The translations under genes were made by a program, and so were the position numbers. Under the pieces are notes generated by a model that saw nothing but the letters and a program-made list of their open reading frames with translations, was not told the DNA's origin and searched no databases. From the UHGV virus genome UHGV-1578121: DNA of 16,995 bases. One strand, 5' to 3'. This document shows, in pieces, positions 1 to 15,305 of this stretch. Position 1 is the first letter of the stretch, and every line of letters begins with the position of its first letter. Source of the DNA: a virus.

Positions 1-113
1 GCGGCGAAATGGCTCACGATATGGCGCATGTAATCAGCATGGTTGATGTTCAGTAGTGCGAACTTATCCGCCGTGTCGATGTACCGGACGGCAGGTTTGA
101 GGATGTCAGGCAT
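1..113 (-). CDS. partial CDS (N-terminus only, continues past window start); hypothetical protein
   Basis: ATG at 113 on minus strand, reads MPDILKPAVRYIDTADKFALLNINHADYMRHIVSHFAA and stays open to the window edge; start overlaps the stop of the upstream gene by 8 nt (operon-style coupling). Confidence 0.35.
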   Translation of the reverse strand, partial: MPDILKPAVRYIDTADKFALLNINHADYMRHIVSHFA

Positions 114-843
114 GTTCACGTTCTCCCAGGCGACGGGCCAGCCAGCGTTGGGCTAATTCGGTGAGACGTTCTTTACGTTCTGGCGTTGGCATATCCATAT
201 CCAGTAGCGCACAGTTACGGCTTTCCAGATACGCGAGCAACGCCAGTTGATCAGCGGTTATATGGTCACGAACTTTTTTTGATGGGATGCCGTTTTTTTT
301 GGCCCATACAGGCGGGTGCATCCCTAATACAAGGCGCGCAATGAAAGTACATTCGTTGTTATAAGCATGACCGTGTTGAGTGTCTCCAGTACGCTCTATG
401 TATCCCTTCATGGCATCCCCCATAGAGCGCATCTCAGCTTTGGCCTCACATCTCTCTGCTATCCAGTTAGCCATGCGGTTAAACTGCGCAATGTATGCCT
501 CTTTGAATGCAGCCGCTTTTTTTCCGGTAAATCCCATTGTTAAAAACACGAAGCCGTCTTTGGTGACTTCGTAGGCTCTCAATACGCGCCCCTTATGCTC
601 AAATTTAACCCGCCGAAAATTGCGGGTTAAAAATTCAGCAGAACAACACAGGTTTTCAATCCGGTTAACAACCTTATCGTGATCCTTTCTGAAAAATCGG
701 GCGATAGCCTGTGAAGTGGTTACAGGCTCACCGCCAGAAGGAAACACTTCCGGCGCAGTGAGTGCATTTTTATTTATTCCGTCAGCAATAATCTCATTGC
801 CGGAAATTACCGAAATAATTGCGGCGAAATCATAATTACGCAT
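106..843 (-). CDS. phage regulatory protein, Rha-like N-terminal domain (245 aa)
   Basis: Provided ORF; N-terminal segment VTTSQAIARFFRKDHDKVVNRIENL...GRVLRAYEVTKDGFVFLTMGFTGKKAAAFKEAYIAQFNRM matches the recalled Rha-domain pattern; overlaps upstream gene by 8 nt. Confidence 0.5.
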   Translation of the reverse strand: MRNYDFAAIISVISGNEIIADGINKNALTAPEVFPSGGEPVTTSQAIARFFRKDHDKVVNRIENLCCSAEFLTRNFRRVKFEHKGRVLRAYEVTKDGFVFLTMGFTGKKAAAFKEAYIAQFNRMANWIAERCEAKAEMRSMGDAMKGYIERTGDTQHGHAYNNECTFIARLVLGMHPPVWAKKNGIPSKKVRDHITADQLALLAYLESRNCALLDMDMPTPERKERLTELAQRWLARRLGEREHA

Positions 844-1351
844 GATTCACCCCCAGAGACGGCGCTGACGTCATCAGGCTGGCGAACGTCTCCATGCGGC
901 GAGCAACTTCCCGCACCGCTTCGGTCGGTGTCATGCCGTTCTGTATCGCCTCGTTAAAAGCCGATATCCCGATTTCTTGTACAACTGACAACAAATGAAA
1001 GCGGTGTTTTGTTTCGTCCTGCTTGAGGTGGCGCATATGTTCTGGGTTACGACCGCGAACAATGCGTAACAAGTAATCATGTTGCATTTCATTCAGCATA
1101 TAGCGCATTTCTGGGCGACCGCGCTTATGGCCTGATTTCAGACTATAGCGAGGCAATGCTCCCAGATCGCGTAACTGCTGCTGATGTTTTTTGATCGTCG
1201 CGCAAAGACTTTCGTGTTGTATTCCTGCTCGCTCAGAAATAACGCGGGAATCAATACGCGACTCTGCTTTGTGGCGAATCAATATATCGTTCTGGTTGAT
1301 TTCAGGCTGAACGAAGCCCTGCCCCTGTACGGGCATATTCGGACGTTTCAT
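836..1351 (-). CDS. hypothetical phage regulatory protein (171 aa), possibly Rha/antirepressor-related
   Basis: Provided ORF in the same operon as alpA and the Rha-like gene; basic protein with an RVISERAGIQHESL...GRPEMRYMLNEMQ segment loosely resembling the Rha pattern. Confidence 0.4.
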   Translation of the reverse strand: MKRPNMPVQGQGFVQPEINQNDILIRHKAESRIDSRVISERAGIQHESLCATIKKHQQQLRDLGALPRYSLKSGHKRGRPEMRYMLNEMQHDYLLRIVRGRNPEHMRHLKQDETKHRFHLLSVVQEIGISAFNEAIQNGMTPTEAVREVARRMETFASLMTSAPSLGVNHA

Positions 1352-1415
1352 TGAAAACTCCTGCTATCGGATCAGGTTTAGTGCTGGGGGAGAATATCCC
1401 CCTCCCAAAAGATTA

Positions 1416-1619
1416 TTACGCGGCGTTGTTGCGAGAAGCATCAATACGCTGGTTAATCCATTCGTCGACTTCACTTTCAATAAAAGCCACGGAGCGGGGA
1501 CCAATTTTTACCGGTTTAGGGAAGCGCCCCAGGCTGATCAGGCGATAAATCCATGCGCGACCGTAACCAGTACGGCGCATAACCTCAGAAAGACGGATGA
1601 ATGAATTGTTATTAGCCAT
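1416..1619 (-). CDS. alpA: AlpA-family phage transcriptional regulator / excisionase-like HTH protein (67 aa)
   Basis: Translation MANNNSFIRLSEVMRRTGYGRAWIYRLISLGRFPKPVKIGPRSVAFIESEVDEWINQR shows the hallmark IRL..V...TG......IY.......FP.P...G.RSV.W.E.EVDEWI pattern of AlpA/CP4-57 regulators; sits downstream of a P4-type integrase. Confidence 0.8.
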   Translation of the reverse strand: MANNNSFIRLSEVMRRTGYGRAWIYRLISLGRFPKPVKIGPRSVAFIESEVDEWINQRIDASRNNAA

Positions 1620-1707
1620 TTATCAATCTCCTTAATGTTGACGCGGAAATCCCCTCCTGTGGCTTAGCAAGAGTTTTATTTGCGTCAAATTACGAACACG
1701 ACAAAAA

Positions 1708-1731
1708 CCACAACATGAAAACATGTTGTGG
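1708..1731. promoter_or_regulatory. perfect palindrome CCACAACATG-AAAA-CATGTTGTGG, candidate operator upstream of alpA
   Basis: 10-bp perfect inverted arms with 4-bp spacer read directly from the sequence, about 90 bp upstream of the alpA start on the minus strand. Confidence 0.4.
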
Positions 1732-2261
1732 TATTGCATAAGATAAATTCAGATTGTTTGGTTGGTATGCTCCAGCAAGGTAGAGCTATTCCCGCTTTCG
1801 GCGGGGTCACACGATTAGGCGTGACGTCCAGTAGTTTTAAAGAGCGCTTTTTCAGTACATGGTGGACGGACAAGAGAGCAATTGCGCTTTGTCAGCGCCG
1901 TAGATTCATATTTGAATCGTTGTATGTTTCCCGATAGCAAATCTATCGGTCACTGCGGGACGAACCATCCCGCCGCATCAATGTTAAAGATCAACAGCAC
2001 TTTGCCAGCGCTCCACCGCCTCATGGATGAATCATTACATGCTTTGTAATAGTGCATGTATCACCATTCTTTCCTGCATCAGGAAAGCACTAAAGGCTGT
2101 TAAAGAGCATCCAGCTTTTCAGCTGCGTAGAAAACTCAATCTTCGTTGTTACAAAGAGCGCCCATACATGACGGATAACTGCGTGAAAAACCCTCTGTAA
2201 GGATGTTAGCTGTAGCTTTCCGTGTACGTTAGCATACATCTGTATACTTGTCCAGTCGTTT

Positions 2262-3476
2262 TTATGCACATACACTAAACTTGCCGTGCACCACGTTTCC
2301 GCCCTGTTCCAGTGAGTCCATATAGTCGGCGTACCACTGGAGCATCTCCCGCCGTCCGTCCAGATATTGCGCGTGATTGTATGTGCCACGGATCGAGTTT
2401 TTATCGACGTGCGCCAGCTGCGTTTCTATCCACGCGGAGTTATAACCCTGCTCATGCAAAATTGTACTCATGGTATGCCGGAACCCATGACCAGTAACGC
2501 GCCCAGCATAGCCAATACGACGAATAAGCACGTTCATCGCCATTTCACTCATCGGTTTACTGTGCTGTATTCGACCAGGGAAAATAAACGGATACTGCCC
2601 CGTCATGTGTTTCAGTTGTTCCAGAATAGCAATCGCCTGTTCTGAAAGCGGCACGCAATGAGGACGGCGCATTTTCATTCGTTCTTTCGGCACTTCCCAC
2701 AGACGATTATCAAAATCAATCTCCTGCCACTCTGCCTGCCGCAATTCACCCGGACGGAGTCCTGTAAGAATCAACAATCGCATACCCAGCTTGACGATCT
2801 GGCTTCCGGTGTACGTATTAAAAACGCGGAAAAATTCCGGTAGCTCATCAACTTTCAGATACGCGTAATGCTCTTTTTTGTGTGGTGCAAATGCGCTTGC
2901 CAGATCAGGAGCGGGGTTATATTCAGCGCGTCCGGTAATTATTGCGTACCGAAACACTTCGCCACATCGCTGGCGAACCTTACGCAATTTTTCAGTTGCG
3001 CCACGGTCATTAAGACGGGATAGAACCGCGAGCAATTCCATCGGCTTAATCTCTGCGATGGGCCTACCTCCAATGTACGGAAAAACGTCTTTTTCAAACG
3101 TCTCTATCATTTCCTCTGCATATGAGGGAGACCATCGGTCCAGGCGTTTTTCATACCACTCACGGGCGATCACCTCAAAGGTGTTACCGCATTTGTTCGC
3201 CTGTTCTCGCTTTTGGGCCTTTCTGACCTCACTCGGATTAACTCCACCAGCGATAAGCCTTTTGGCTTCATCCCTTGCCGTCCTGGCATCAGAAAGGGAC
3301 ACCTCAGGATAGACACCCAGCGACAACATTTTGGGCTTGCCTGCAAACCTGTATCGCAATCGCCAGCCCTTCGAACCGTTCGGCTCAATGAGTAACGAAA
3401 GCCCGTTGCCGTCATTGAGTGTATAGGCTTTCTCTTTTGGCTTCGCGCGGCGGATAGCAAGGTCTGAAAGCAACAT
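2262..3476 (-). CDS. int: P4-type tyrosine integrase (site-specific recombinase)
   Basis: Translation begins MLLSDLAIRRAKPKEKAYTLNDGNGLSLLIEPNGSKGWRLRYRFAGKPK (classic P4-integrase N-terminus) and ends with catalytic motifs HGFRHT...LAHVDKNSIRGTYNHAQY; start placed at the internal ATG 3476 (GGGGG upstream) rather than ORF-track 3515, which has no RBS. Confidence 0.9.
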   Translation of the reverse strand: MLLSDLAIRRAKPKEKAYTLNDGNGLSLLIEPNGSKGWRLRYRFAGKPKMLSLGVYPEVSLSDARTARDEAKRLIAGGVNPSEVRKAQKREQANKCGNTFEVIAREWYEKRLDRWSPSYAEEMIETFEKDVFPYIGGRPIAEIKPMELLAVLSRLNDRGATEKLRKVRQRCGEVFRYAIITGRAEYNPAPDLASAFAPHKKEHYAYLKVDELPEFFRVFNTYTGSQIVKLGMRLLILTGLRPGELRQAEWQEIDFDNRLWEVPKERMKMRRPHCVPLSEQAIAILEQLKHMTGQYPFIFPGRIQHSKPMSEMAMNVLIRRIGYAGRVTGHGFRHTMSTILHEQGYNSAWIETQLAHVDKNSIRGTYNHAQYLDGRREMLQWYADYMDSLEQGGNVVHGKFSVCA

Positions 3477-3533
3477 GTGTATAGCCCCCAAAAAACGATT
3501 TTGTCCTATACGCATTACTATACACTTCTGTGT

Positions 3534-3632
3534 GTAGATTTAGGTAGATGACTGTAGACGGTTGTAGACGAGGAAAAACGCTGGAGGCCTTGATATTCGG
3601 GGGATTGGTAGACTTTAGTAGACGTTGGTAGA
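3534..3632. repeat. array of seven direct GTAGA(C/T) repeats phased at 10 bp (3534, 3544, 3554, 3564 and 3608, 3618, 3628); candidate integrase arm-type or accessory-protein binding sites
   Basis: Read directly: tGTAGAttta gGTAGAtgac tGTAGAcggt tGTAGAcgag ... gGTAGActtt aGTAGAcgtt gGTAGAtgtt; lies between the integrase start and the tRNA-like core. Confidence 0.6.
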
Positions 3633-3640
3633 TGTTTGTT

Positions 3641-3662
3641 TGGAGCGGGCGAAGGGAATCGA
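3641..3662 (-). other. 22-nt partial tRNA 3' end (T-loop to CCA), tRNA-Gly-like; att core/junction direct repeat
   Basis: Reverse complement of 3641-3662 is TCGATTCCCTTCGCCCGCTCCA = T-loop remnant + T-stem 3' strand + acceptor 3' strand + discriminator + CCA; sequence further 5' does not continue as a tRNA. Assignment to tRNA-Gly(CCC) is from memory and unverified. Confidence 0.55.
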
Positions 3663-5075: not shown

Positions 5076-6917
5076 TTAACTTGGTGCTTGCCCAGACAGA
5101 GCCGCCAACGTGAAACTACGTTCAAAATCTTGTTGGATACTTCCCACTTTGTAATCGAGGTATGATCCAAGCTGACTACCATCAGGGGCGATATTCACAT
5201 CCACCTTGCTTTCCGGCACGTTTACGACGATGTTCGGTGCATACGTCATAGATGGGGTAGTGTTCAGATCACGGCTAACGTTCTGTTTCAAGGATTGCAC
5301 GTTATCGGATGGGCTGGAATAGTTCTGAATTGCAGTGCCGCCAGTTGTTGGCTTGTCTTCCGTGCCAGGGATAGGTGATAAGCCTAAAGCACTACGACCC
5401 CAATCAACCATACCCCCTACAAACGAGTCCTTATAATACATACCGGACGAATCCAATTGCTCGTGCTTATTCTCTGGATTGATTTTTTGATATGCAGCAG
5501 TGATCCACGATACAGCACCAGCAAAGGCGCTCATCATTTCAGCCGTTGAGCTTCCAAGTTCTCTAAACAGAGGATTGAGATCTTTCAGCATTTGCGCCCA
5601 CTCTTCACCAGCTTTCGCGTCGAATTCTTCACCGAATCCCGTCATGATAGCTTTCTTACTACCTTCCCAGGCCATATTCATATTGGCTTGCACTGCCTGG
5701 AGACGTTCAGCAGCGTCCAGATCCGCTTGTGTATAGGTGGCATTGGCTTTTTGCATCTTAACGATGGTTTTGTTTAGCTCTTCACCGTTACGACTGAAAG
5801 CACCACGGAAATATTGTAAATCATTTCCAAGATCTTCAAGAATATGACCTATTTCCTGATCAGAGAGTCCACGGCGTTCTCCTTCTTTCACTACAGCGCC
5901 CAGGAAACCTAATGGATCAGTCTGGAAACCTTTAACCTGTTCAGGACTCCAACCATATTTATTAAGGATGTTATCAACGGCACCGTTACCGCCAGCCCAG
6001 CGACCTTTTTTAGCGTCCCATTTGGTATTCCCTACGGATTCACCTAAACGCTCTTGAACGTCTTTAAGGTTATCTTGACGTTGAGAGACGGAACTATCAA
6101 CACCGTGTTCTAAGCCGTACTGGTTGAGTGCTAACAGGGCGTTAGTGTTGACGTTTACAGCCTTTGCCTTGCGGTTAGTGTCTGTGATCTTGCTTGCCTG
6201 ATCGGTTACGGTATTGAATATCGCAGCACCGCCGAGAGTAGCAGCAGTGAGAGCAGCACCGCCCGCCATTGCACCTACACTACCGCCCATATGACCGCCT
6301 TTAAGCTGTTTAGCCATATGTGGATACTTGCCACCATCAGCCGCCACCTGGCGAGCTTTTACAGCAGCCGCACGGCGTTCTAACGTGATACGATCACGGA
6401 TCAGGTGATTCATCTTAGCCTGACTAATAACGCCTTTCTCATACGCTGCCGTTTGTGCTTTGATGTACTGTAATGTTTTGTAGTATTGGGCGGAGTCCAT
6501 ACCGTCACCCATACGCCCCTTCTTGATGCCTTCAAGCTGTCTAAAAGCTTGCTGGCGTTTAATCTCTGCTTTCTCTGCTATCGTTGCTTTAGCGCGGATC
6601 TGTTTATCGGCAGCTATCGCGGCTTTAGCCTTCGCTTTAGCTTCTGCCTTTGCCACCTTATCAGCATTCTTCTTATCTGTTTGAGCTTGCTTGTCTGACG
6701 CTTTAGCATCAGCTTTAGCCTGTGCAGCTTTACGGGCCTTTACCAGATCGTTAGCATCGTCTATAGCTCGTTTAGCCTTCTTCCCTTTCAATGTTGGATT
6801 GGTTAGGTTTTCCATTTCTTTCTGAAATTTCTTACCTGCATCGCGTGCTTTCTGTAATGATGCAAAATCAACTTTAAAAACGACGCGGTTCGTTAAGGTT
6901 GAGATGTTCAACTCCAT
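5076..6917 (-). CDS. large Lys/Ala-rich coiled-coil protein with a Gly-rich hydrophobic segment; tape-measure-like / virion structural protein (613 aa)
   Basis: AAGGAAAA RBS before ATG 6917; N-terminal KAxAKA-type low-complexity coiled coil, then GGHMGGSVGAMAGGAALTAATLGGAAIF glycine-rich hydrophobic stretch as seen in tail tape-measure proteins; function inferred from composition only. Confidence 0.4.
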   Translation of the reverse strand: MELNISTLTNRVVFKVDFASLQKARDAGKKFQKEMENLTNPTLKGKKAKRAIDDANDLVKARKAAQAKADAKASDKQAQTDKKNADKVAKAEAKAKAKAAIAADKQIRAKATIAEKAEIKRQQAFRQLEGIKKGRMGDGMDSAQYYKTLQYIKAQTAAYEKGVISQAKMNHLIRDRITLERRAAAVKARQVAADGGKYPHMAKQLKGGHMGGSVGAMAGGAALTAATLGGAAIFNTVTDQASKITDTNRKAKAVNVNTNALLALNQYGLEHGVDSSVSQRQDNLKDVQERLGESVGNTKWDAKKGRWAGGNGAVDNILNKYGWSPEQVKGFQTDPLGFLGAVVKEGERRGLSDQEIGHILEDLGNDLQYFRGAFSRNGEELNKTIVKMQKANATYTQADLDAAERLQAVQANMNMAWEGSKKAIMTGFGEEFDAKAGEEWAQMLKDLNPLFRELGSSTAEMMSAFAGAVSWITAAYQKINPENKHEQLDSSGMYYKDSFVGGMVDWGRSALGLSPIPGTEDKPTTGGTAIQNYSSPSDNVQSLKQNVSRDLNTTPSMTYAPNIVVNVPESKVDVNIAPDGSQLGSYLDYKVGSIQQDFERSFTLAALSGQAPS

Positions 6918-8902: not shown

Positions 8903-8950
8903 TGTTGCTTTACCTTTTATTCCTAACATTCTTGTTTAGTGCTGATAAAA

Positions 8951-8980
8951 TAAAACCGGAAGGGAAAAGCTTCCGGCTTT
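8951..8980 (-). terminator. rho-independent terminator (minus-strand orientation favoured)
   Basis: Perfect 7-bp stem CCGGAAG/CTTCCGG with 7-nt loop; on the minus strand the stem is followed by TTTTATTTTAT; located immediately upstream of the capsid gene block. Confidence 0.6.
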
Positions 8981-9783
8981 ATGAATACAACATTGAAGGA
9001 TGTTATAGAGTAGTGTTACTAAATCGCAGTTATATGCACTTAAAGAGGTAGGACATATAAGAATAAGATTTCTTATTGTTATAAGCCCTTGAGGGGTGAA
9101 TAACAGGCTTACAGAGGAGTAGGCGCTTAGGAGGTCGCCCCCTTGGAAAGGAATCATTGTAAACCTGTTATTCGTGCGATGGCTAATCGCTGTCTTTCTC
9201 AATGTGGATGCATCGATCAGACTATTCAGGAATCACCTATTAACTTTCAAACCTTTTGGATTCTCATTTTAATAGGAGGCGGTGCCGAGATGATTTCGGG
9301 GATCATCCACGCTTTCGCGTTCTAAGATTGACACCTTAATAAACACCAACAAAAACATATTCAGCTCATTGTTGTCAAGAAACAATATACACCGTTATTT
9401 GTTTATACGGGGTTTATAGAACACTGAAAAACAGTGCTTTTAGAAAGTGTTTCGTGTTTCATGCTTCATAGTTGATTAAAAGATGAGGGGCCAAGTCCAT
9501 AGCCCCTGCATTCTCAAATACACAATATGATAAAGCAATAAAGAATAAGGAAAATAAAATGAAACTATTTTTTAAGAGGAAACAATTTCTAAAAATCACT
9601 GTAAATGGAAAGCGAGGTAGGTTAGATAGGGCGCAACCCCTTGAGGTCTACCCCGCTTTCATGTAGATTAGAATAGGGAGAAGAATTAACACCAGCTAAC
9701 TCCAATTTCCATTCAATACTCTTCATTTATTATTCTAACAGATTTGTCAGTAGAAGTCAATATTTAAATCAATAAAAATTAAT

Positions 9784-9876
9784 TTATTTTTCGTTTGTTA
9801 ATTCCCACTTACCGAACATGCAGTTGCCATCTAAAACAATAGTTTGTTCGTTACCGTTATCATCGGTTACGTGCAT
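9784..9876 (-). CDS. hypothetical small protein (30 aa), translationally coupled
   Basis: ATG overlaps the stop of the upstream 38-aa ORF (TGATG); reads MHVTDDNGNEQTIVLDGNCMFGKWELTNEK; below the ORF-track size cut-off, found by manual translation. Confidence 0.3.
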   Translation of the reverse strand: MHVTDDNGNEQTIVLDGNCMFGKWELTNEK

Positions 9877-9992
9877 CAGGCGGCCTGAGTGTCGAGCTTA
9901 CCAGTGTAGATCTTGCCTACTGTGAAACAATGGCACGATATGCCTTCTTCTGTAAGTGCCAGTAAACGGGCACGTTTGGTTTTTACTGTCAT
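9876..9992 (-). CDS. hypothetical small protein (38 aa), translationally coupled
   Basis: ATG overlaps the stop of the upstream 102-aa ORF (ATGA); reads MTVKTKRARLLALTEEGISCHCFTVGKIYTGKLDTQAA; found by manual translation. Confidence 0.3.
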   Translation of the reverse strand: MTVKTKRARLLALTEEGISCHCFTVGKIYTGKLDTQAA

Positions 9993-11539: not shown

Positions 11540-12205
11540 TTAAAATGGTATTGAGTCATAGATTTCACTTTCTTTTCTCAGGGCTATCATCAGTGCATTA
11601 AAAGCATCATCTTCAAGAATTATCCTCTTCGAGGTCAGTGCACGTTTTATAAAATTTTCTGTTTCTTCTTGCATAGGCTTTTGGCTGTCTATGGAAATAA
11701 GCCATGTAAAAAGATCAGATTGTTCCGTGATTTCTGCCTGTGTTTCCTGCTCAATAGAGTGTGTCGCTTCTAACGGTTCCTGTGTTTCAGGTGCAGGCTG
11801 TTCTACGTTTACAGAGGTTTTTACGTCTTCCGGTGGTGTGATGTGTGCATCTGTAAAGGGTAATGCTTTATAGAGTGATGTTTGCCCGTCCCGTGCCTCT
11901 ACAGAAAGAACACCCATATCAATAAACATATTTATAATATTACGCACCTGACGATCACTAACCATTCCAATATTAGCTAATGTTTTTTGATTGGCGTAAC
12001 ATTCTTGCCCTTGTTCATTGAACCCAGCTACGTAACTGTAGATTTCAACGGCTGGAAGTGTCGCGGTGTATTCCTTACCTGACGGTGAGAACCACTTTTT
12101 AAACATCTTCAGCCATTGTTCAACTACTACATATGTTTGTTTACTATCTTTCTTATTGAGGCATTGCGCTTTTGCTTCGGCAATTGTTTTGGTGTTTTGG
12201 TTCAT
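11540..12205 (-). CDS. putative replication-initiator-like / winged-HTH DNA-binding protein with acidic C-terminal half (221 aa)
   Basis: Strong AAGGAGG RBS; N-terminal region YSYVAGFNEQGQECYANQKTLANIGMVSDRQVRNIINMFIDMGVL resembles the N-terminal DNA-binding domain of lambda-O-type replisome organisers (recalled pattern); C-terminal part E/Q/T-rich. Confidence 0.45.
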   Translation of the reverse strand: MNQNTKTIAEAKAQCLNKKDSKQTYVVVEQWLKMFKKWFSPSGKEYTATLPAVEIYSYVAGFNEQGQECYANQKTLANIGMVSDRQVRNIINMFIDMGVLSVEARDGQTSLYKALPFTDAHITPPEDVKTSVNVEQPAPETQEPLEATHSIEQETQAEITEQSDLFTWLISIDSQKPMQEETENFIKRALTSKRIILEDDAFNALMIALRKESEIYDSIPF

Positions 12206-12535: not shown

Positions 12536-13404
12536 AAAAACTCCTTATTTAGATAAAAGAAAAACACACCTTGCAGCCTAACGGCTCAAAGTGCAGTGTT
12601 CTGTGATTTGATTATTTAGATGGAGAGAGATGTTTCTCCCCTCCCTACTTACAATACTACATAACGGCGGCTTTGTCAACCCTCTTTTATAAAAAATTTG
12701 ATCATTTTCAATTTCTTATAATTTTTCTTAGCTTTTTGTGCTGCCTACTCTGGTACAATTCTTCCCTGTTGTCTAAAACGCTCTCAATCGCACTCTGACG
12801 GGGTTTTGATAAAAATAATACATTCCCTTATGTAGAGGTTGTTTATCTCGTCAGAGGCTTATTTAAGGGGCTTATTTTTGATTTATCAGATGATGGAAAG
12901 ATGGTGGATAGATAAACTCTGATTTCAGACATCTTATAAAATACCTGCAAAGTTCTCAGAAGCTCTGTAACGAGCTAATCTATTACCGCTAAGGTGTTTC
13001 CCTTACATTACCCTGTTTAGCTCGCCTACGGCTTGATTTAAGCGGTAGAATCTTATTTAACCTTCAACTACAAAAACCATTCTTTCTTTTTTGTTGTTGG
13101 TTGTTTTGTCATGTTATGCGTTAGCATCCCCAAAGGGTAACGCGACACTAACAACCATTCGCTTACGCTCAGGTTATTGCACAAGTAAATTTCAATCGTT
13201 AGATGGTAGTTAGTTAATTATCGTTCTGCGCACAGCGCAAGACTATTAGCCATACGCAAGTCGTAGGCTATTTGCACATAGTAGATTACATATTCGTTGT
13301 GAGCGGAAAGCGAACATAGATCAGCTAACTACTAACAAAAAACAAAAAACAAAAACTATCTGTTATGACAAGCATCAGTCTAACTTGTGCAAGGTTCTGG
13401 CGAA

Positions 13405-13473
13405 TGCCAATAGATTAAGGGATAGTCGAAGACTCCCTAACGGGTATCCCTATAATTATTCTTTAAAAGATAA
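13405..13473. repeat. copy 1 of a ~70-bp direct repeat containing a nested hairpin (AGGGATA...TATCCCT) and a TATAAT hexamer
   Basis: tgccaatagattaagggatagtcgaagactccctaacgggtatccctataattattctttaaaagataa read directly; near-identical copy at 13588-13657. Confidence 0.7.
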
Positions 13474-13518
13474 AAGAATTTATAAAAGATAGTTTAATTG
13501 TAGTTTAATTATAGTATT

Positions 13519-13571
13519 GTAGGAACTCATTTCCTGGGTAGGTAGGAACTCATTTCCTGGGTAGGTAGGAA
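13519..13571. repeat. 23-bp tandem repeat x2.3 (gtaggaactcatttcctgggtag), each unit with internal palindrome AGGAA-ctcat-TTCCT
   Basis: Read directly; lies between the two copies of the 70-bp direct repeat. Confidence 0.7.
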
Positions 13572-13587
13572 ACCCGCACTATACGAT

Positions 13588-13657
13588 TGCCAATAGATTA
13601 AGGGATAGTCGAAGACTCCCCTAACGGGTATCCCTATAATTATTCTTTAAAAGATAA
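13588..13657. repeat. copy 2 of the ~70-bp direct repeat (one extra C relative to copy 1)
   Basis: tgccaatagattaagggatagtcgaagactcccctaacgggtatccctataattattctttaaaagataa read directly. Confidence 0.7.
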
Positions 13658-14334
13658 TTATAGTTAGTTGTTAGTTTTATTATTAGTATTATTAAAGTAA
13701 TCTTATTGTCAGTCATCGTGACCGACACCCCCCCACACAACATCTGTGCAATGATCTTCTAAAAGTGTTTCTTGCTATCAAAAATTAAAAAAACAGGCTT
13801 AAATTCAAGATTAATTGATGATTAATCCCTATGTAATTCCATACTAAAAATTCAATGAAAAGTAGATTCAAAGTGCAATTCTTACTTTCTTCACTTTTAC
13901 ATTATCATCAGCAAAGCCTTATGTAATGCGGCATATAGCGTATCACTGCAAAATTGTTGCTCAATAAACGTTCTACCATTTGTTGAACGAATGTTCACTC
14001 GTGCACATCTCAAAGAGAATAATTATTTATCATACAATTCCATAATAAGAATTATTATCACTTATAATGCAATACAACCCAGATTCGATACACTTTAGCA
14101 AAGTGTATTCTGTAACCTACTGATCTTTATATACTCAGGCATATATAGACCATTTATCGCTATTTATTGGCTTTTTTTCATCTGCCGAAAATAAATTTCT
14201 TGACAAGACAGATCATTTGTGAGCGGCTTGCATAAAATAAATTTACTTATAAATCAACAAGATATTTCATATTTGTGCCTGCATCAGATCGGGAGGCTTG
14301 ATCTTTGTGTTCAACGATGGTGACGGACGCACCT

Positions 14335-14420
14335 AAATTAAATCGGTTTTAATCGCCTTTAATACCTTTTAATCAGTCTTAATCACCTTTTAATAGCCCT
14401 TTAATCATTTTTGATCATTT
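14335..14420. promoter_or_regulatory. array of eight TTTTAATC-like repeats phased at 10-11 bp (helical repeat): candidate curved DNA / iteron / protein-binding array upstream of the short recombinase gene
   Basis: aatcggtttt aatcgccttt aatacctttt aatcagtctt aatcaccttt taatagccct ttaatcattt ttgatcattt read directly with near-constant 10-bp period. Confidence 0.6.
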
Positions 14421-14517
14421 AGTGCTCTCAACCATAAAACGTATCGTGCAACATATTGAAAATGATCATTTTATGATCAAAACTACTTTCATTGAAACGA
14501 ATAAGGAGAGTATAAAG

Positions 14518-15096
14518 ATGAAAGGTATTAGCCAAGCCCTCAAGAATGTAGACGAGGTAAAAACAGTAGCAGCAGAGCTACAGCGCAATAGTAAAACCAA
14601 CCTGTTTTATTGCTTATGGGTGTTTATGTATGAAAGCGGGTTGCGTGTCTCTGACGTACTCAAGCTAAAATATCAGGATGTTGAGGGGCAATCTCATTTG
14701 AAGATAAAGCAGGAGAAAACCGGAAACGTAGTAAGGCCAAAAGTTACCCCCGCCATGTTGTCAGTGGTGGCACAACGCAAGGCAGAGCAAACGAAGATGC
14801 CTGTAGCTACAGATTTTATTTTCAGTGCTGGCACATTACGCAGTAAAGGCGAAGCCGTAACCCGTAACACGGTATTCACTGAATTTGGGAAGATGGGACG
14901 TAGAGCCGGATTCTCTAATGTGGGATGCCATACGCCACGTAAAAGTCGGGGCCGTGTGATGTTTGATGCAGGGGTAGCTATAGAGACAATAGCCCATTTC
15001 CTGGGACAGACAGATCCGCGCTCTACTATGTATTACATCGGGTATGGTCAGGATGTGCAGGACGATTTAGCAGAGGAGTTTTCTTTAGAATGGTGA
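14518..15096 (+). CDS. short tyrosine recombinase, catalytic domain only, FimB/FimE-like (192 aa)
   Basis: Start moved to ATG 14518, which has AAGGAG 8 nt upstream (ORF-track start 14422 has none); motifs LFYCLWVFMYESGLRVSDVLKLKYQDV (box I Arg), CHTPRKSRGR (H-x-x-R) and LGQTDPRSTMYY (catalytic Tyr); size typical of invertase-type recombinases. Confidence 0.75.
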   Translation: MKGISQALKNVDEVKTVAAELQRNSKTNLFYCLWVFMYESGLRVSDVLKLKYQDVEGQSHLKIKQEKTGNVVRPKVTPAMLSVVAQRKAEQTKMPVATDFIFSAGTLRSKGEAVTRNTVFTEFGKMGRRAGFSNVGCHTPRKSRGRVMFDAGVAIETIAHFLGQTDPRSTMYYIGYGQDVQDDLAEEFSLEW

Positions 15097-15305
15097 TCCA
15101 AATTAAAAGCTTATTTGTGCTGACGTTGGCGCTATTGCCTGTCCTATCGAATGCCGGACAGATAACAATGGTCAACCCACAGGAAGAACAGACGGAGAAT
15201 GGAAAAACGCTGTGCACGTATCAGAACAGCAATTATCTGTTCACTTACGTAACTAAGGGGAAATGCCCTTATGCAAAAACATTTGACACTTCCGCCAAAG
15301 AATAA
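15090..15305 (+). CDS. small secreted protein (71 aa precursor) with predicted signal peptide and two Cys in the mature part
   Basis: N-terminus MVIQIKSLFVLTLALLPVLSNA followed by GQ looks like a Sec signal peptide with AxA-type cleavage site; ATG overlaps the recombinase stop (ATGGTGA), suggesting coupling. Confidence 0.45.
   Translation: MVIQIKSLFVLTLALLPVLSNAGQITMVNPQEEQTENGKTLCTYQNSNYLFTYVTKGKCPYAKTFDTSAKE

Follow-up and report, generated by a model that had tools for sequence, protein, structure and literature searches.

What function does a gene-free, repeat-laden stretch of almost 2 kb serve in a mobile element? The question is raised by positions 12536-14517 of UHGV virus genome UHGV-1578121, a sequence of 16,995 nucleotides (the whole stretch analysed, hereafter the window) that is a 100% match to the chromosome of Escherichia coli MJ-T. 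An earlier note, made from the letters of the window, found no credible open reading frame (ORF) in the region and offered three readings for its repeats: an origin of replication with iterons, a packaging or recombination site, or a cluster of small-RNA genes. The absence of coding capacity holds, the longest ORF being 41 aa, and a tRNA/tmRNA scan of the region finds no such gene. The region lies in a 13.8-kb integrative element with 22-bp att direct repeats 13,828 bp apart, the distal copy being the 3' end of a tRNA-Gly gene. The element looks like a phage satellite because muut, a lytic phage of 146 kb (Stephanstirmvirinae), encodes relatives of four of its proteins, namely a 613-aa protein, a capsid protein, a 221-aa helix-turn-helix (HTH) protein and a 71-aa protein. 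The region is probably the cis-acting control region of this satellite and would include its vegetative replication origin. The evidence for this reading centers on the following features:

11540..12205, minus strand: gene for the 221-aa initiator-like protein (Pfam HTH_36), with a type-A N-terminal domain
13401..13473: first copy of the 73-bp left anchor, containing a nested hairpin; its TATAAT is oriented towards the A+T-rich stretch
13457..13518: A+T-rich stretch (87% A+T), a putative DNA-unwinding element, which includes 2.5 copies of ATAGTTTAATT
13519..13571: putative type-A iterons; the 23-bp unit occurs in 2.3 copies, and its dyad-symmetric core GGAACTCATTTCC lies at 13522-13534 and 13545-13557

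The 23-bp tandem repeat with an internal palindrome that the earlier note described is present at 13519-13571, in 2.3 copies of the unit GTAGGAACTCATTTCCTGGGTAG that are 100% identical (Tandem Repeats Finder score 106). At the equivalent position, every relative carries two to five tandem units of 22-23 bp with a palindromic core, located beside A+T-rich DNA; copy number varies, with 3.3 units in locus L005 and 4 in L002. The cores sort into type A (that of the window), type B (AACAGAATTCTGT), type C (TAGCTCACAGTGACC), type D (TATCAATATTGATA) and type E (GTAACGAATCGTTAC). The 221-aa protein is itself modular: a linker of predicted disorder connects its N-terminal winged-helix domain, which is variable, to a helical C-terminal domain that ends in IPF. 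Its N-terminal domain also occurs in five types, and these are matched to the five unit types in 16 of 16 loci. Among the same relatives, the unit types track neither the flanking DNA nor the C-terminus of the protein, the last 70 aa of which give a clustering and a tree that differ from those of the N-terminal domain types. In L003, the flanking DNA is ~90% identical to that of the window, yet this locus carries a type-B domain and five type-B units, which were predicted from the domain before the units were inspected. In further loci that retain both gene and origin region, domain and unit types agree in 12 of 13, the exception being a decayed remnant. A set of 12 loci from IMG/VR, all of them provirus predictions from isolate genomes and hence without virion ends, served only to enlarge this table. 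Some elements (L008, L020, L027 and L028) harbor more than one cassette type. Two or three iteron clusters then stand side by side (L008:10057-10380, L027, L028, L020), in combinations such as C+A, C+A+B or C+D, and these could be multi-origin cassettes or decoys.

A second line of evidence comes from the phage side. The only full-length phage relatives of the initiator-like protein are chimeras. In muut, gp154 (332 aa; L018:31258-32256, which is MN850573.1 81258-82256, listed with proteins P0019, P0022 and P0023) consists of a type-D domain, a type-A domain and then a MUG113/T5orf172 nuclease domain of the GIY-YIG superfamily. The type-D domain is nearly identical to that of L010, and the type-A domain shares 75% identity with the window protein; the DNA that encodes this type-A domain (muut 81629-81889) and window 11850-12110 are 90.8% identical over 261 bp (E = 6e-101). 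In P0022 and P0023, type-B and type-A domains are joined to the same nuclease. A precedent for this arrangement, established by experiment, exists in Vibrio cholerae, where the N-terminal domain of RepA from PLE, an element resembling phage-inducible chromosomal islands, co-varies with the PLE ori, and where phage ICP1 encodes Odn, a nuclease of T5orf172 type that bears a RepA-like DNA-binding domain and cleaves at the iterons (PMC8263062). PLE escapes Odn by swapping replicon modules or restructuring its iterons (PMC8263062). By analogy, gp154, P0022 and P0023 look like double-headed counterparts of this origin-directed nuclease. Some large coliphages appear to attack the origin units by means of a nuclease assembled from the satellite's own DNA-binding domain, which would make the units of the window a target in a satellite-phage conflict.

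Because the domain-unit covariation and the nuclease chimera mirror PLE RepA/ori and ICP1 Odn, the 23-bp units are read as origin iterons, and 13457-13571 as a whole is likely to supply the iterons and unwinding element of a replication origin. In sequence terms, the locus has the tandem repeats of ~17-30 bp in helical phase, the A+T-rich neighbor and the element-encoded, type-matched initiator of an iteron origin. In the proposed mechanism, dimers of the 221-aa winged-helix protein would bind the dyad-symmetric 23-bp iterons via the N-terminal domain, and the C-terminal domain would recruit a helicase or replisome, supplied by the host or by a helper phage. The 87% A+T stretch would then melt, and transcription that starts at the TATAAT in the 73-bp anchor might assist. 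Read from left to right, the complete region would comprise the promoter and leader of a leftward early operon, a hairpin-rich block, the vegetative origin, a right block and the upstream region of a cargo recombinase.

A number of observations weigh against this assignment. The designation of the 221-aa protein as an initiator rests on weak PHROG profile matches (replication-initiator, O-like and DnaD-like; E = 7e-6 to 4e-3). In an AlphaFold2 model (predicted local distance difference test score of 60), residues 49-114 form a winged helix, and when the PDB is searched with this model in Foldseek, only generic winged-helix matches come back, none with E <= 0.001; the entry 4pql, which we take to be the N-terminal domain of a staphylococcal plasmid RepA, ranks fourth in the list and is not discriminating. 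The window holds only two full iterons. No TTATCCACA DnaA box (allowing up to one mismatch), TTWTNCACA or integration host factor (IHF) consensus occurs in 12536-14517. DnaA and IHF sites are common but not universal in iteron origins, and the lambda ori likewise has no DnaA requirement. The origin would also account for only ~120-330 bp of the 1982 bp, leaving ~700 bp of left block and ~250 bp of right block outside it. Finally, the helper role of a muut-like phage is drawn from shared sequences only, and the carriers of gp154 may be resistant phages rather than exploitable ones.

The ~70-bp direct repeat that dominates the center of the region calls for a separate account. Its two copies, each with a TATAAT and a nested hairpin as the earlier note had stated, are found at 13401-13473 and 13584-13657, with a start-to-start spacing of 183/184 bp, and are one mismatch and one extra C apart. 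The hexamers lie at 13451-13456 and 13635-13640, and each copy folds as DNA with -8.9 kcal/mol (z = -2.4). Exact repeats of 37-39 nt and 23 nt within 2 kb are far beyond chance. The right-hand part of the repeat structure consists of:

13584..13657: second copy of the 73-bp anchor, a lineage-specific duplication that starts a second, iteron-poor cassette
13658..13733: second-cassette remnant, with an 85% A+T stretch, one degenerate type-C-like unit (GTCAGTCATCGTGACCGAC) and a C-run

In the relatives, the origin cassette sits between two conserved anchors, the 73-bp element on the left and a sequence ending in CATCTGTGCAATGATCTT on the right. The 73-bp anchor is single-copy and ~92-100% conserved in all A-type relatives, directly upstream of the A+T stretch and the iterons. 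A second copy occurs only in the five genomes that match the whole region as one aligned piece (H1-H5; checked directly in L001 and L005) and is absent from L006, L007, L002 and L003. Sequence 13584-13733 is 78-81% identical to the type-C/E cassette backbone of L011, L013, L014 and L015, with one degenerate unit remaining; the window lineage therefore has two tandem cassettes joined at the shared anchor, an arrangement that gave rise to the ~70-bp direct repeat. Judged from these alignments, the origin is an exchangeable cassette between conserved anchors, and the direct repeat is a scar of cassette exchange. It is not a pair of small-RNA genes. The proposal of an origin with iterons survives for the 23-bp units and their A+T-rich neighbor and fails for the ~70-bp repeats, which are an anchor duplication present in single copy in nearly all relatives. 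A comparison of the repeat architecture among relatives, which the earlier note had proposed as a check, finds ordered modules, with tandem units that co-vary with the initiator domain.

Most of the region lies outside the origin cassette, in the following segments:

12536..12650, minus strand: 5' leader of the leftward operon, between the promoter-like site and the start codon of a 60-aa gene
12651..12679, minus strand: sigma-70-like promoter of the leftward operon (TTGACA, 17-nt spacer, TATTGT), 10/12 matches, the best in the region
12680..12915: conserved block 1, 75-78% conserved even in the most distant backbone
13070..13365, plus strand: hairpin-rich conserved block, marked by its RNA fold z score and near-invariance among relatives
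13734..13990: conserved right block, which begins with the right anchor of the origin cassette and is conserved in all backbones

The A+T content of the region is 65.5%, versus 57.7% for the whole window. The remaining repeats of the earlier note lie at or within a few bases of where it placed them: 2.5 copies of ATAGTTTAATT at 13489-13515, 3.1 copies of AACAAAA at 13334-13355 and a complementary T/G-rich run at 13080-13102. A phased 10/20-bp TTTAATC array at 14347-14407 was not in its list. Generic sigma-70-like promoter sites are not above chance in the region (6, versus 9.0 +/- 3.2 in shuffles). In the leftward promoter, TTTGTCAA is invariant in 10 aligned relatives, and the leader contains a small, conserved AGCC-N4-GGCT hairpin for which the alignment shows relatives with an extended stem and an altered loop. 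Block 1 contains a GATC palindrome (TTTGATCATTTTC, 12696-12708), AGAGGCTTATTT/AGGGGCTTATTT at 12853-12877 and 2.4 copies of AGATGATGGAA at 12888-12913; the palindrome and short direct repeats are candidate sites for a regulator or a packaging protein.

The hairpin-rich block is bracketed by the T/G-rich run and an (AACAAAA)n run at 13327-13355 and holds GCGCACAGCGC (13228-13238), a hairpin TAGCCATACGCAAGTCGTAGGCTA (13247-13270) and GTGAGCGGAA. Noncoding sequence from 12760 to 13460 is 74-99% identical to that of relatives whose early genes are only 40-70% identical, and 13228-13475 is almost invariant in the same comparison. Two backbones exist for the left part, A (that of the window) and B (L009-like), and what they have in common is block 1 and the islands GCGCACAGCGC and GTGAGCGGAA, between which each carries a hairpin of unrelated sequence. 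The B-backbone counterpart, a 436-nt block, is located directly left of the origin at L009:9555-9990 and recurs in L004, L008, L010 and L020-L023 with 96.5-98.7% conservation. The right block has no consensus structure (RNAalifold, -9 kcal/mol); it contains an invariant CTTTCTTCACTTTTACAT and TGTG(C/T)AAT-like motifs at 13745, 13830 and 13920. A small ORF at 13855-13926 was rejected as a coding sequence because indels break its frame in relatives. The TGTG(C/T)AAT motif, which is not a DnaA box, occurs also at window 13176 and 13283 and is strongly enriched in the gap. In L009 (9602-10756), 9 of the 12 occurrences in 19.5 kb fall in the 2-kb gap at a spacing of ~80-110 bp; to the left of the origin most of them occupy the minus strand, and to its right the plus strand, so that they point leftward and rightward, respectively. 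About two thirds of the region is clearly constrained outside any assigned role. Candidates for this DNA are a transcript with secondary structure, a signal for packaging or for single-strand priming, and arrays of regulator sites.

The far right of the region and the gene that follows it form a module of their own:

13991..14517, plus strand: upstream region of the tyrosine recombinase, found only where the tyrosine recombinase is present
14518..15096, plus strand: gene for a 192-aa tyrosine recombinase (Pfam Phage_integrase), catalytic domain only

DNA to the right of ~13990 belongs to this recombinase module. The upstream region contains the TTTAATC array, TGATCA palindromes at 14412, 14463 and 14474, a terminator-like hairpin at 14286-14304 and the ribosome-binding site of the recombinase gene. 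In most loci the slot that the gene occupies holds a serine recombinase, and only the window, L005 and L006 have the tyrosine recombinase there. L012 and L016 carry in its place an unrelated, secreted 183-aa protein encoded on the opposite strand, and in L008 and L014 the slot is empty; since its content varies among relatives, the recombinase is regarded as cargo. The slot, between the conserved core and the tRNA gene (window 14518-15305; L002-L016), is a cargo hotspot that can also carry a YecR lipoprotein. The tyrosine recombinase is accompanied there by the 71-aa protein related to muut gp36.

Several other functions might be proposed for the same DNA, and each must be weighed against a control region with an iteron origin. 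The most direct challenge to the iterons themselves is that the 23-bp units are operators and that the HTH protein is a transcriptional repressor or activator controlling transcription across the region. Dyad-symmetric sites and domain covariation would suit any sequence-specific dimeric binder equally; the structure search gives mostly MarR-type regulators, some genomes annotate the protein as a transcriptional regulator, and a TATAAT stands 60 bp upstream of the units. The units, however, lie ~850 bp away from the one good promoter that the operon for the HTH protein possesses, are always paired with an 85-87% A+T stretch and come in two to five phased copies, with two or three cassette types in some elements. 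The profile matches, moreover, are to replication initiators, and a phage nuclease directed at the units is easier to understand if they form an essential origin, as was shown for PLE and Odn (PMC8263062). Operators are thus improbable. For the DNA beside the origin, the alternatives are stronger. Sequence 13070-13365, and possibly more, might encode a large, structured, rightward non-coding RNA that acts as a replication pre-primer or activator or as a regulator of satellite or helper genes. This idea draws on the fold of the window block (z = -3.0 on the plus strand, -1.9 on the minus strand) and on that of the B block, which reaches -158 kcal/mol (z = -8.7) on the plus strand, 26 kcal/mol more stable than the minus strand (-132 kcal/mol, z = -6.3). 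It also draws on the unrelated hairpins held between common islands in the two backbones, on two compensatory pairs that extend the GCGC hairpin, on A-group variation that falls in loops and bulges and on the abundant non-coding RNAs expressed by PLEs and ICP1 (PMC7567579). On the other side, the two strands of the window block fold equally (-72.3 versus -73.3 kcal/mol), its sub-segments are not significant (z about -1), and the covariation is thin, stemming effectively from two independent lineages; the B block is uninformative here, its sequences being 97% identical. A search of Rfam 15, which the earlier note had suggested for the hairpin, yields no match at gathering thresholds and nothing credible at permissive ones (best E of 3 and 5 for the window and 0.22 for L009). 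Scans for promoters and terminators reveal none that is both convincing and conserved, the B backbone does not keep the TATAAT at 12718, and the copy number of a ~106-bp sub-module varies among relatives, as is more typical of protein-site arrays. A structured RNA is an unlikely but not negligible explanation of the block, and a cluster of small-RNA genes finds no support in the Rfam, promoter and terminator results. Slightly better placed, and still a minority possibility, is the proposal that the conserved non-origin DNA consists of packaging (pac) or single-strand priming signals for helper-phage proteins. If so, its conservation above that of the genes and its failure to vary with the initiator would be explained. 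PLE carries a pac mimic in noncoding DNA between ori and the leftward cluster (10.1101/2024.04.22.590561), and by analogy a packaging site within the present region is possible. Short, patchy matches of several satellites cluster in muut noncoding DNA at 64.0-65.8 kb, the best being 46 bp at 91% for L008 (E = 5e-12) and 22 bp at 95% for the B group, and the noncoding conservation and the short direct repeats of block 1 fit the same picture. The window's own matches to muut, in contrast, span only 12-34 bp with E = 0.003-0.5, even versus a 2-kb sub-region of the phage, and none of 50,697 phage records is matched in megablast/blastn searches in which the region, its core and the B-type block served as queries (E <= 1e-5 for the region, E <= 0.01 for the B block).

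The recombinase suggests yet another possibility, namely that the region is or contains an invertible or resolvable segment, such as a Fim/Hin-type switch or a multimer-resolution site. Two unrelated families of small recombinase (serine in most loci, tyrosine here) are encoded directly right of the region, and both align end to end with invertase models at low score; for the 192-aa protein, the full-length match to FimB/E-type models is weak, at 30 bits versus a cut-off of 222. A 19-nt inverted repeat (12699-12717 versus 14450-14468) brackets 1.7 kb, and the TTTAATC array and TGATCA palindromes lie upstream of the recombinase gene. The core, however, is unchanged in loci where the slot holds the secreted protein or nothing, and relatives with a serine recombinase keep the left arm of the inverted repeat while lacking the right one. 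In each of the 25 genomes with a coverage of >= 80% of the region, the match runs along one strand with no inverted arrangement, the only missing part being the replaced segment, and a local BLAST search of the window versus 22 E. coli loci finds no inverted block in any of them, only short T/G-rich and A/C-rich arms in inverted orientation. A DNA switch is for these reasons very unlikely, and the recombination site of the earlier note is unsupported for the conserved core; a resolution or regulatory site for the recombinase may lie within 13991-14517. Decay of the region into functionless DNA or pseudogene remnants, the outcome that would have undone the earlier note, can be set aside almost entirely. 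The lack of ORFs, the lack of annotation in any genome and the replacement or deletion of some segments among relatives are compatible with decay, but the region is more conserved than its flanking genes, is present in every family member inspected and is built of ordered modules with co-varying parts.

The control-region reading must also fit the element as a whole. In addition to the leftward operon of small genes with the HTH protein, the 2-kb gap and the 192-aa recombinase, the element encodes an integrase of 406 aa, a major capsid protein of the lambda-E type and the 613-aa protein, which has a tape-measure-like match in PHROG. When 10-plus ORFs are scanned with Pfam, PHROG and NCBIfam, the searches turn up only the capsid, tape-measure-like, HTH initiator and recombinase genes. 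These results were set beside the P4 markers alpha/sid/psu/delta, the alpA and pri-rep of phage-inducible chromosomal islands (PICIs) and the portal/protease/terS head module of capsid-forming PICIs. Over residues 233-604, the 613-aa protein (window 5076-6917) shares 29% identity with gp231, which is encoded in the structural region of muut (E = 1.5e-41). A gene annotated as a phage baseplate protein adjoins the 613-aa gene in relatives and is missing from the window element.

Related DNA is present in 651-741 of 5426 complete E. coli genomes and is annotated in none of them. The 22 E. coli loci inspected are inserted at tRNA-Gly, at tRNA-Thr or beside the thiM riboswitch and share a common order, in which the early operon is followed by a gene-free, unannotated gap of 1.4-2.9 kb at the position of the region and then by the variable slot. 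A query of species-representative genomes with the initiator finds no relatives; its homologues are almost all from E. coli, with one match in E. albertii, and the family appears to be confined to Escherichia. A plasmid collection yields only two matches, both of chromosomal type. In the literature searched, neither this E. coli family nor an Odn-like nuclease of a coliphage is described, an absence that is no proof of novelty.

The closest functional parallel is PLE, which has a ~3-kb noncoding region with ori in its right-most quarter (PMC7567579). Both are integrative satellites of small size (13.8 kb here, ~18 kb in the case of PLE) with an apparent tie to a lytic myovirus of large genome (146 versus 126 kb), and both have an integrase, a leftward gene cluster and a multi-kb noncoding region with ori in its right part (PMC7567579). 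Shared features at the origin are semi-palindromic iterons, an initiator whose N-terminus co-varies with ori while its C-terminus does not, a phage fusion of the DNA-binding domain to a T5orf172-type nuclease and restructuring of ori by local duplication in some lineages (PMC8263062). The differences are equally pronounced. The satellite's DNA-binding domain scores as HTH_36 in Pfam rather than as RepA_N, its iterons measure 22-23 bp rather than ~30 bp, and at least five specificity types are seen versus two described for PLE. The coliphage nuclease carries two tandem domains of different specificity (D+A or B+A), and the satellite has tandem multi-cassette origins and a capsid-protein homologue of its own. 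Profile scans and initiator-homologue searches detect no sequence relationship to PLE, and the initiator homologues appear to be confined to Escherichia. By analogy, then, the element would work like PLE but is not a member of the PLE family, and its origin would work like an iteron origin.

The origin can likewise be compared with the lambda ori/O system and with the iteron plasmids pSC101, F, R6K and RSF1010. Common to these are tandem, dyad-symmetric repeats about two helical turns apart beside an A+T stretch, a winged-helix initiator (here with weak O-like and DnaD-like matches) and, possibly, a promoter that reads towards the origin. The satellite origin differs in its location outside the initiator gene, in its lack of a DnaA box or IHF consensus and in having only 2.3 units. 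The placement of a hairpin-rich block beside the unwinding element recalls the single-strand initiation (ssi) sites of the IncQ oriV. The resemblance to the Fim (FimB/FimE) and Hin switches is limited to a recombinase of ~190 aa, reduced to its catalytic domain, beside noncoding DNA with inverted repeats; no genome compared has the alternative orientation, the recombinase is dispensable for the core, and its score of 30 bits is far from the 222 of the invertase models.

If the origin assignment is correct, satellite-phage conflict over an origin would not be unique to cholera, from which PLE/ICP1 is so far the only case. It would recur in E. coli, in roughly one complete genome in seven. A commentary from late 2025 still names PLE as the notable exception among satellites, in that it exploits a lytic phage with a genome far larger than those of the classical helpers. 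The E. coli system offers more variants (five origin specificities and double-headed phage nucleases), easy genetics and phages that are candidates for therapy, and predictions follow as to which nuclease variant cuts which origin type and which carrier strains restrict which phages. The finding also flags a very conserved, structured noncoding block. A broader proposal, advanced tentatively, is that an undescribed family of PLE-like E. coli satellites of Stephanstirmvirinae phages is engaged in an origin arms race, with at least five exchangeable iteron/domain specificities, tandem multi-origin cassettes and two-domain phage nucleases. In the same proposal, the hairpin-rich block may link replication of the satellite to the helper replisome, either as a large structured RNA of a new kind or as a signal for single-strand priming.

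A few minor observations concern muut and the surroundings of the region. In muut, 64021-65788 (L018:14021-15788) is a gene-free, repeat-rich stretch of 1.8 kb with four copies of TGTATGAAATGATTAC, four Fur-box-like GATAATGATTATCATT and four occurrences of AGGTTAGAT within ~250 bp; the majority of the short DNA matches between satellites and phage lie in this stretch, and it may be a phage origin or regulatory hub. The muut motif GGAAACCATTTCC, which occurs five times in short intergenic gaps at 66.5-72.3 kb, was considered as a type-A iteron and set aside, since these are probably phage stem-loops that resemble the type-A core. The pattern GGAAACCA(T/C)TTCC is found five times in muut on one strand, in gaps between small early-type genes (66500, 67359, 69368, 71677 and 72256; L018:16500-22268), versus 0.04 expected. 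The satellite has a second gene-free gap of ~1 kb at window 8930-9988, between genes for proteins of 80 and 102 aa; this gap is also ~1 kb in L002, is only ~350 bp in B-type relatives and holds one AGGTTAGAT motif. Adjoining the satellite, window 1-3650 (L001:1358-6879) is part of a decayed E. coli type III secretion system 2 (ETT2) cluster, in which the EscU/YscU and YscQ genes are frameshifted.

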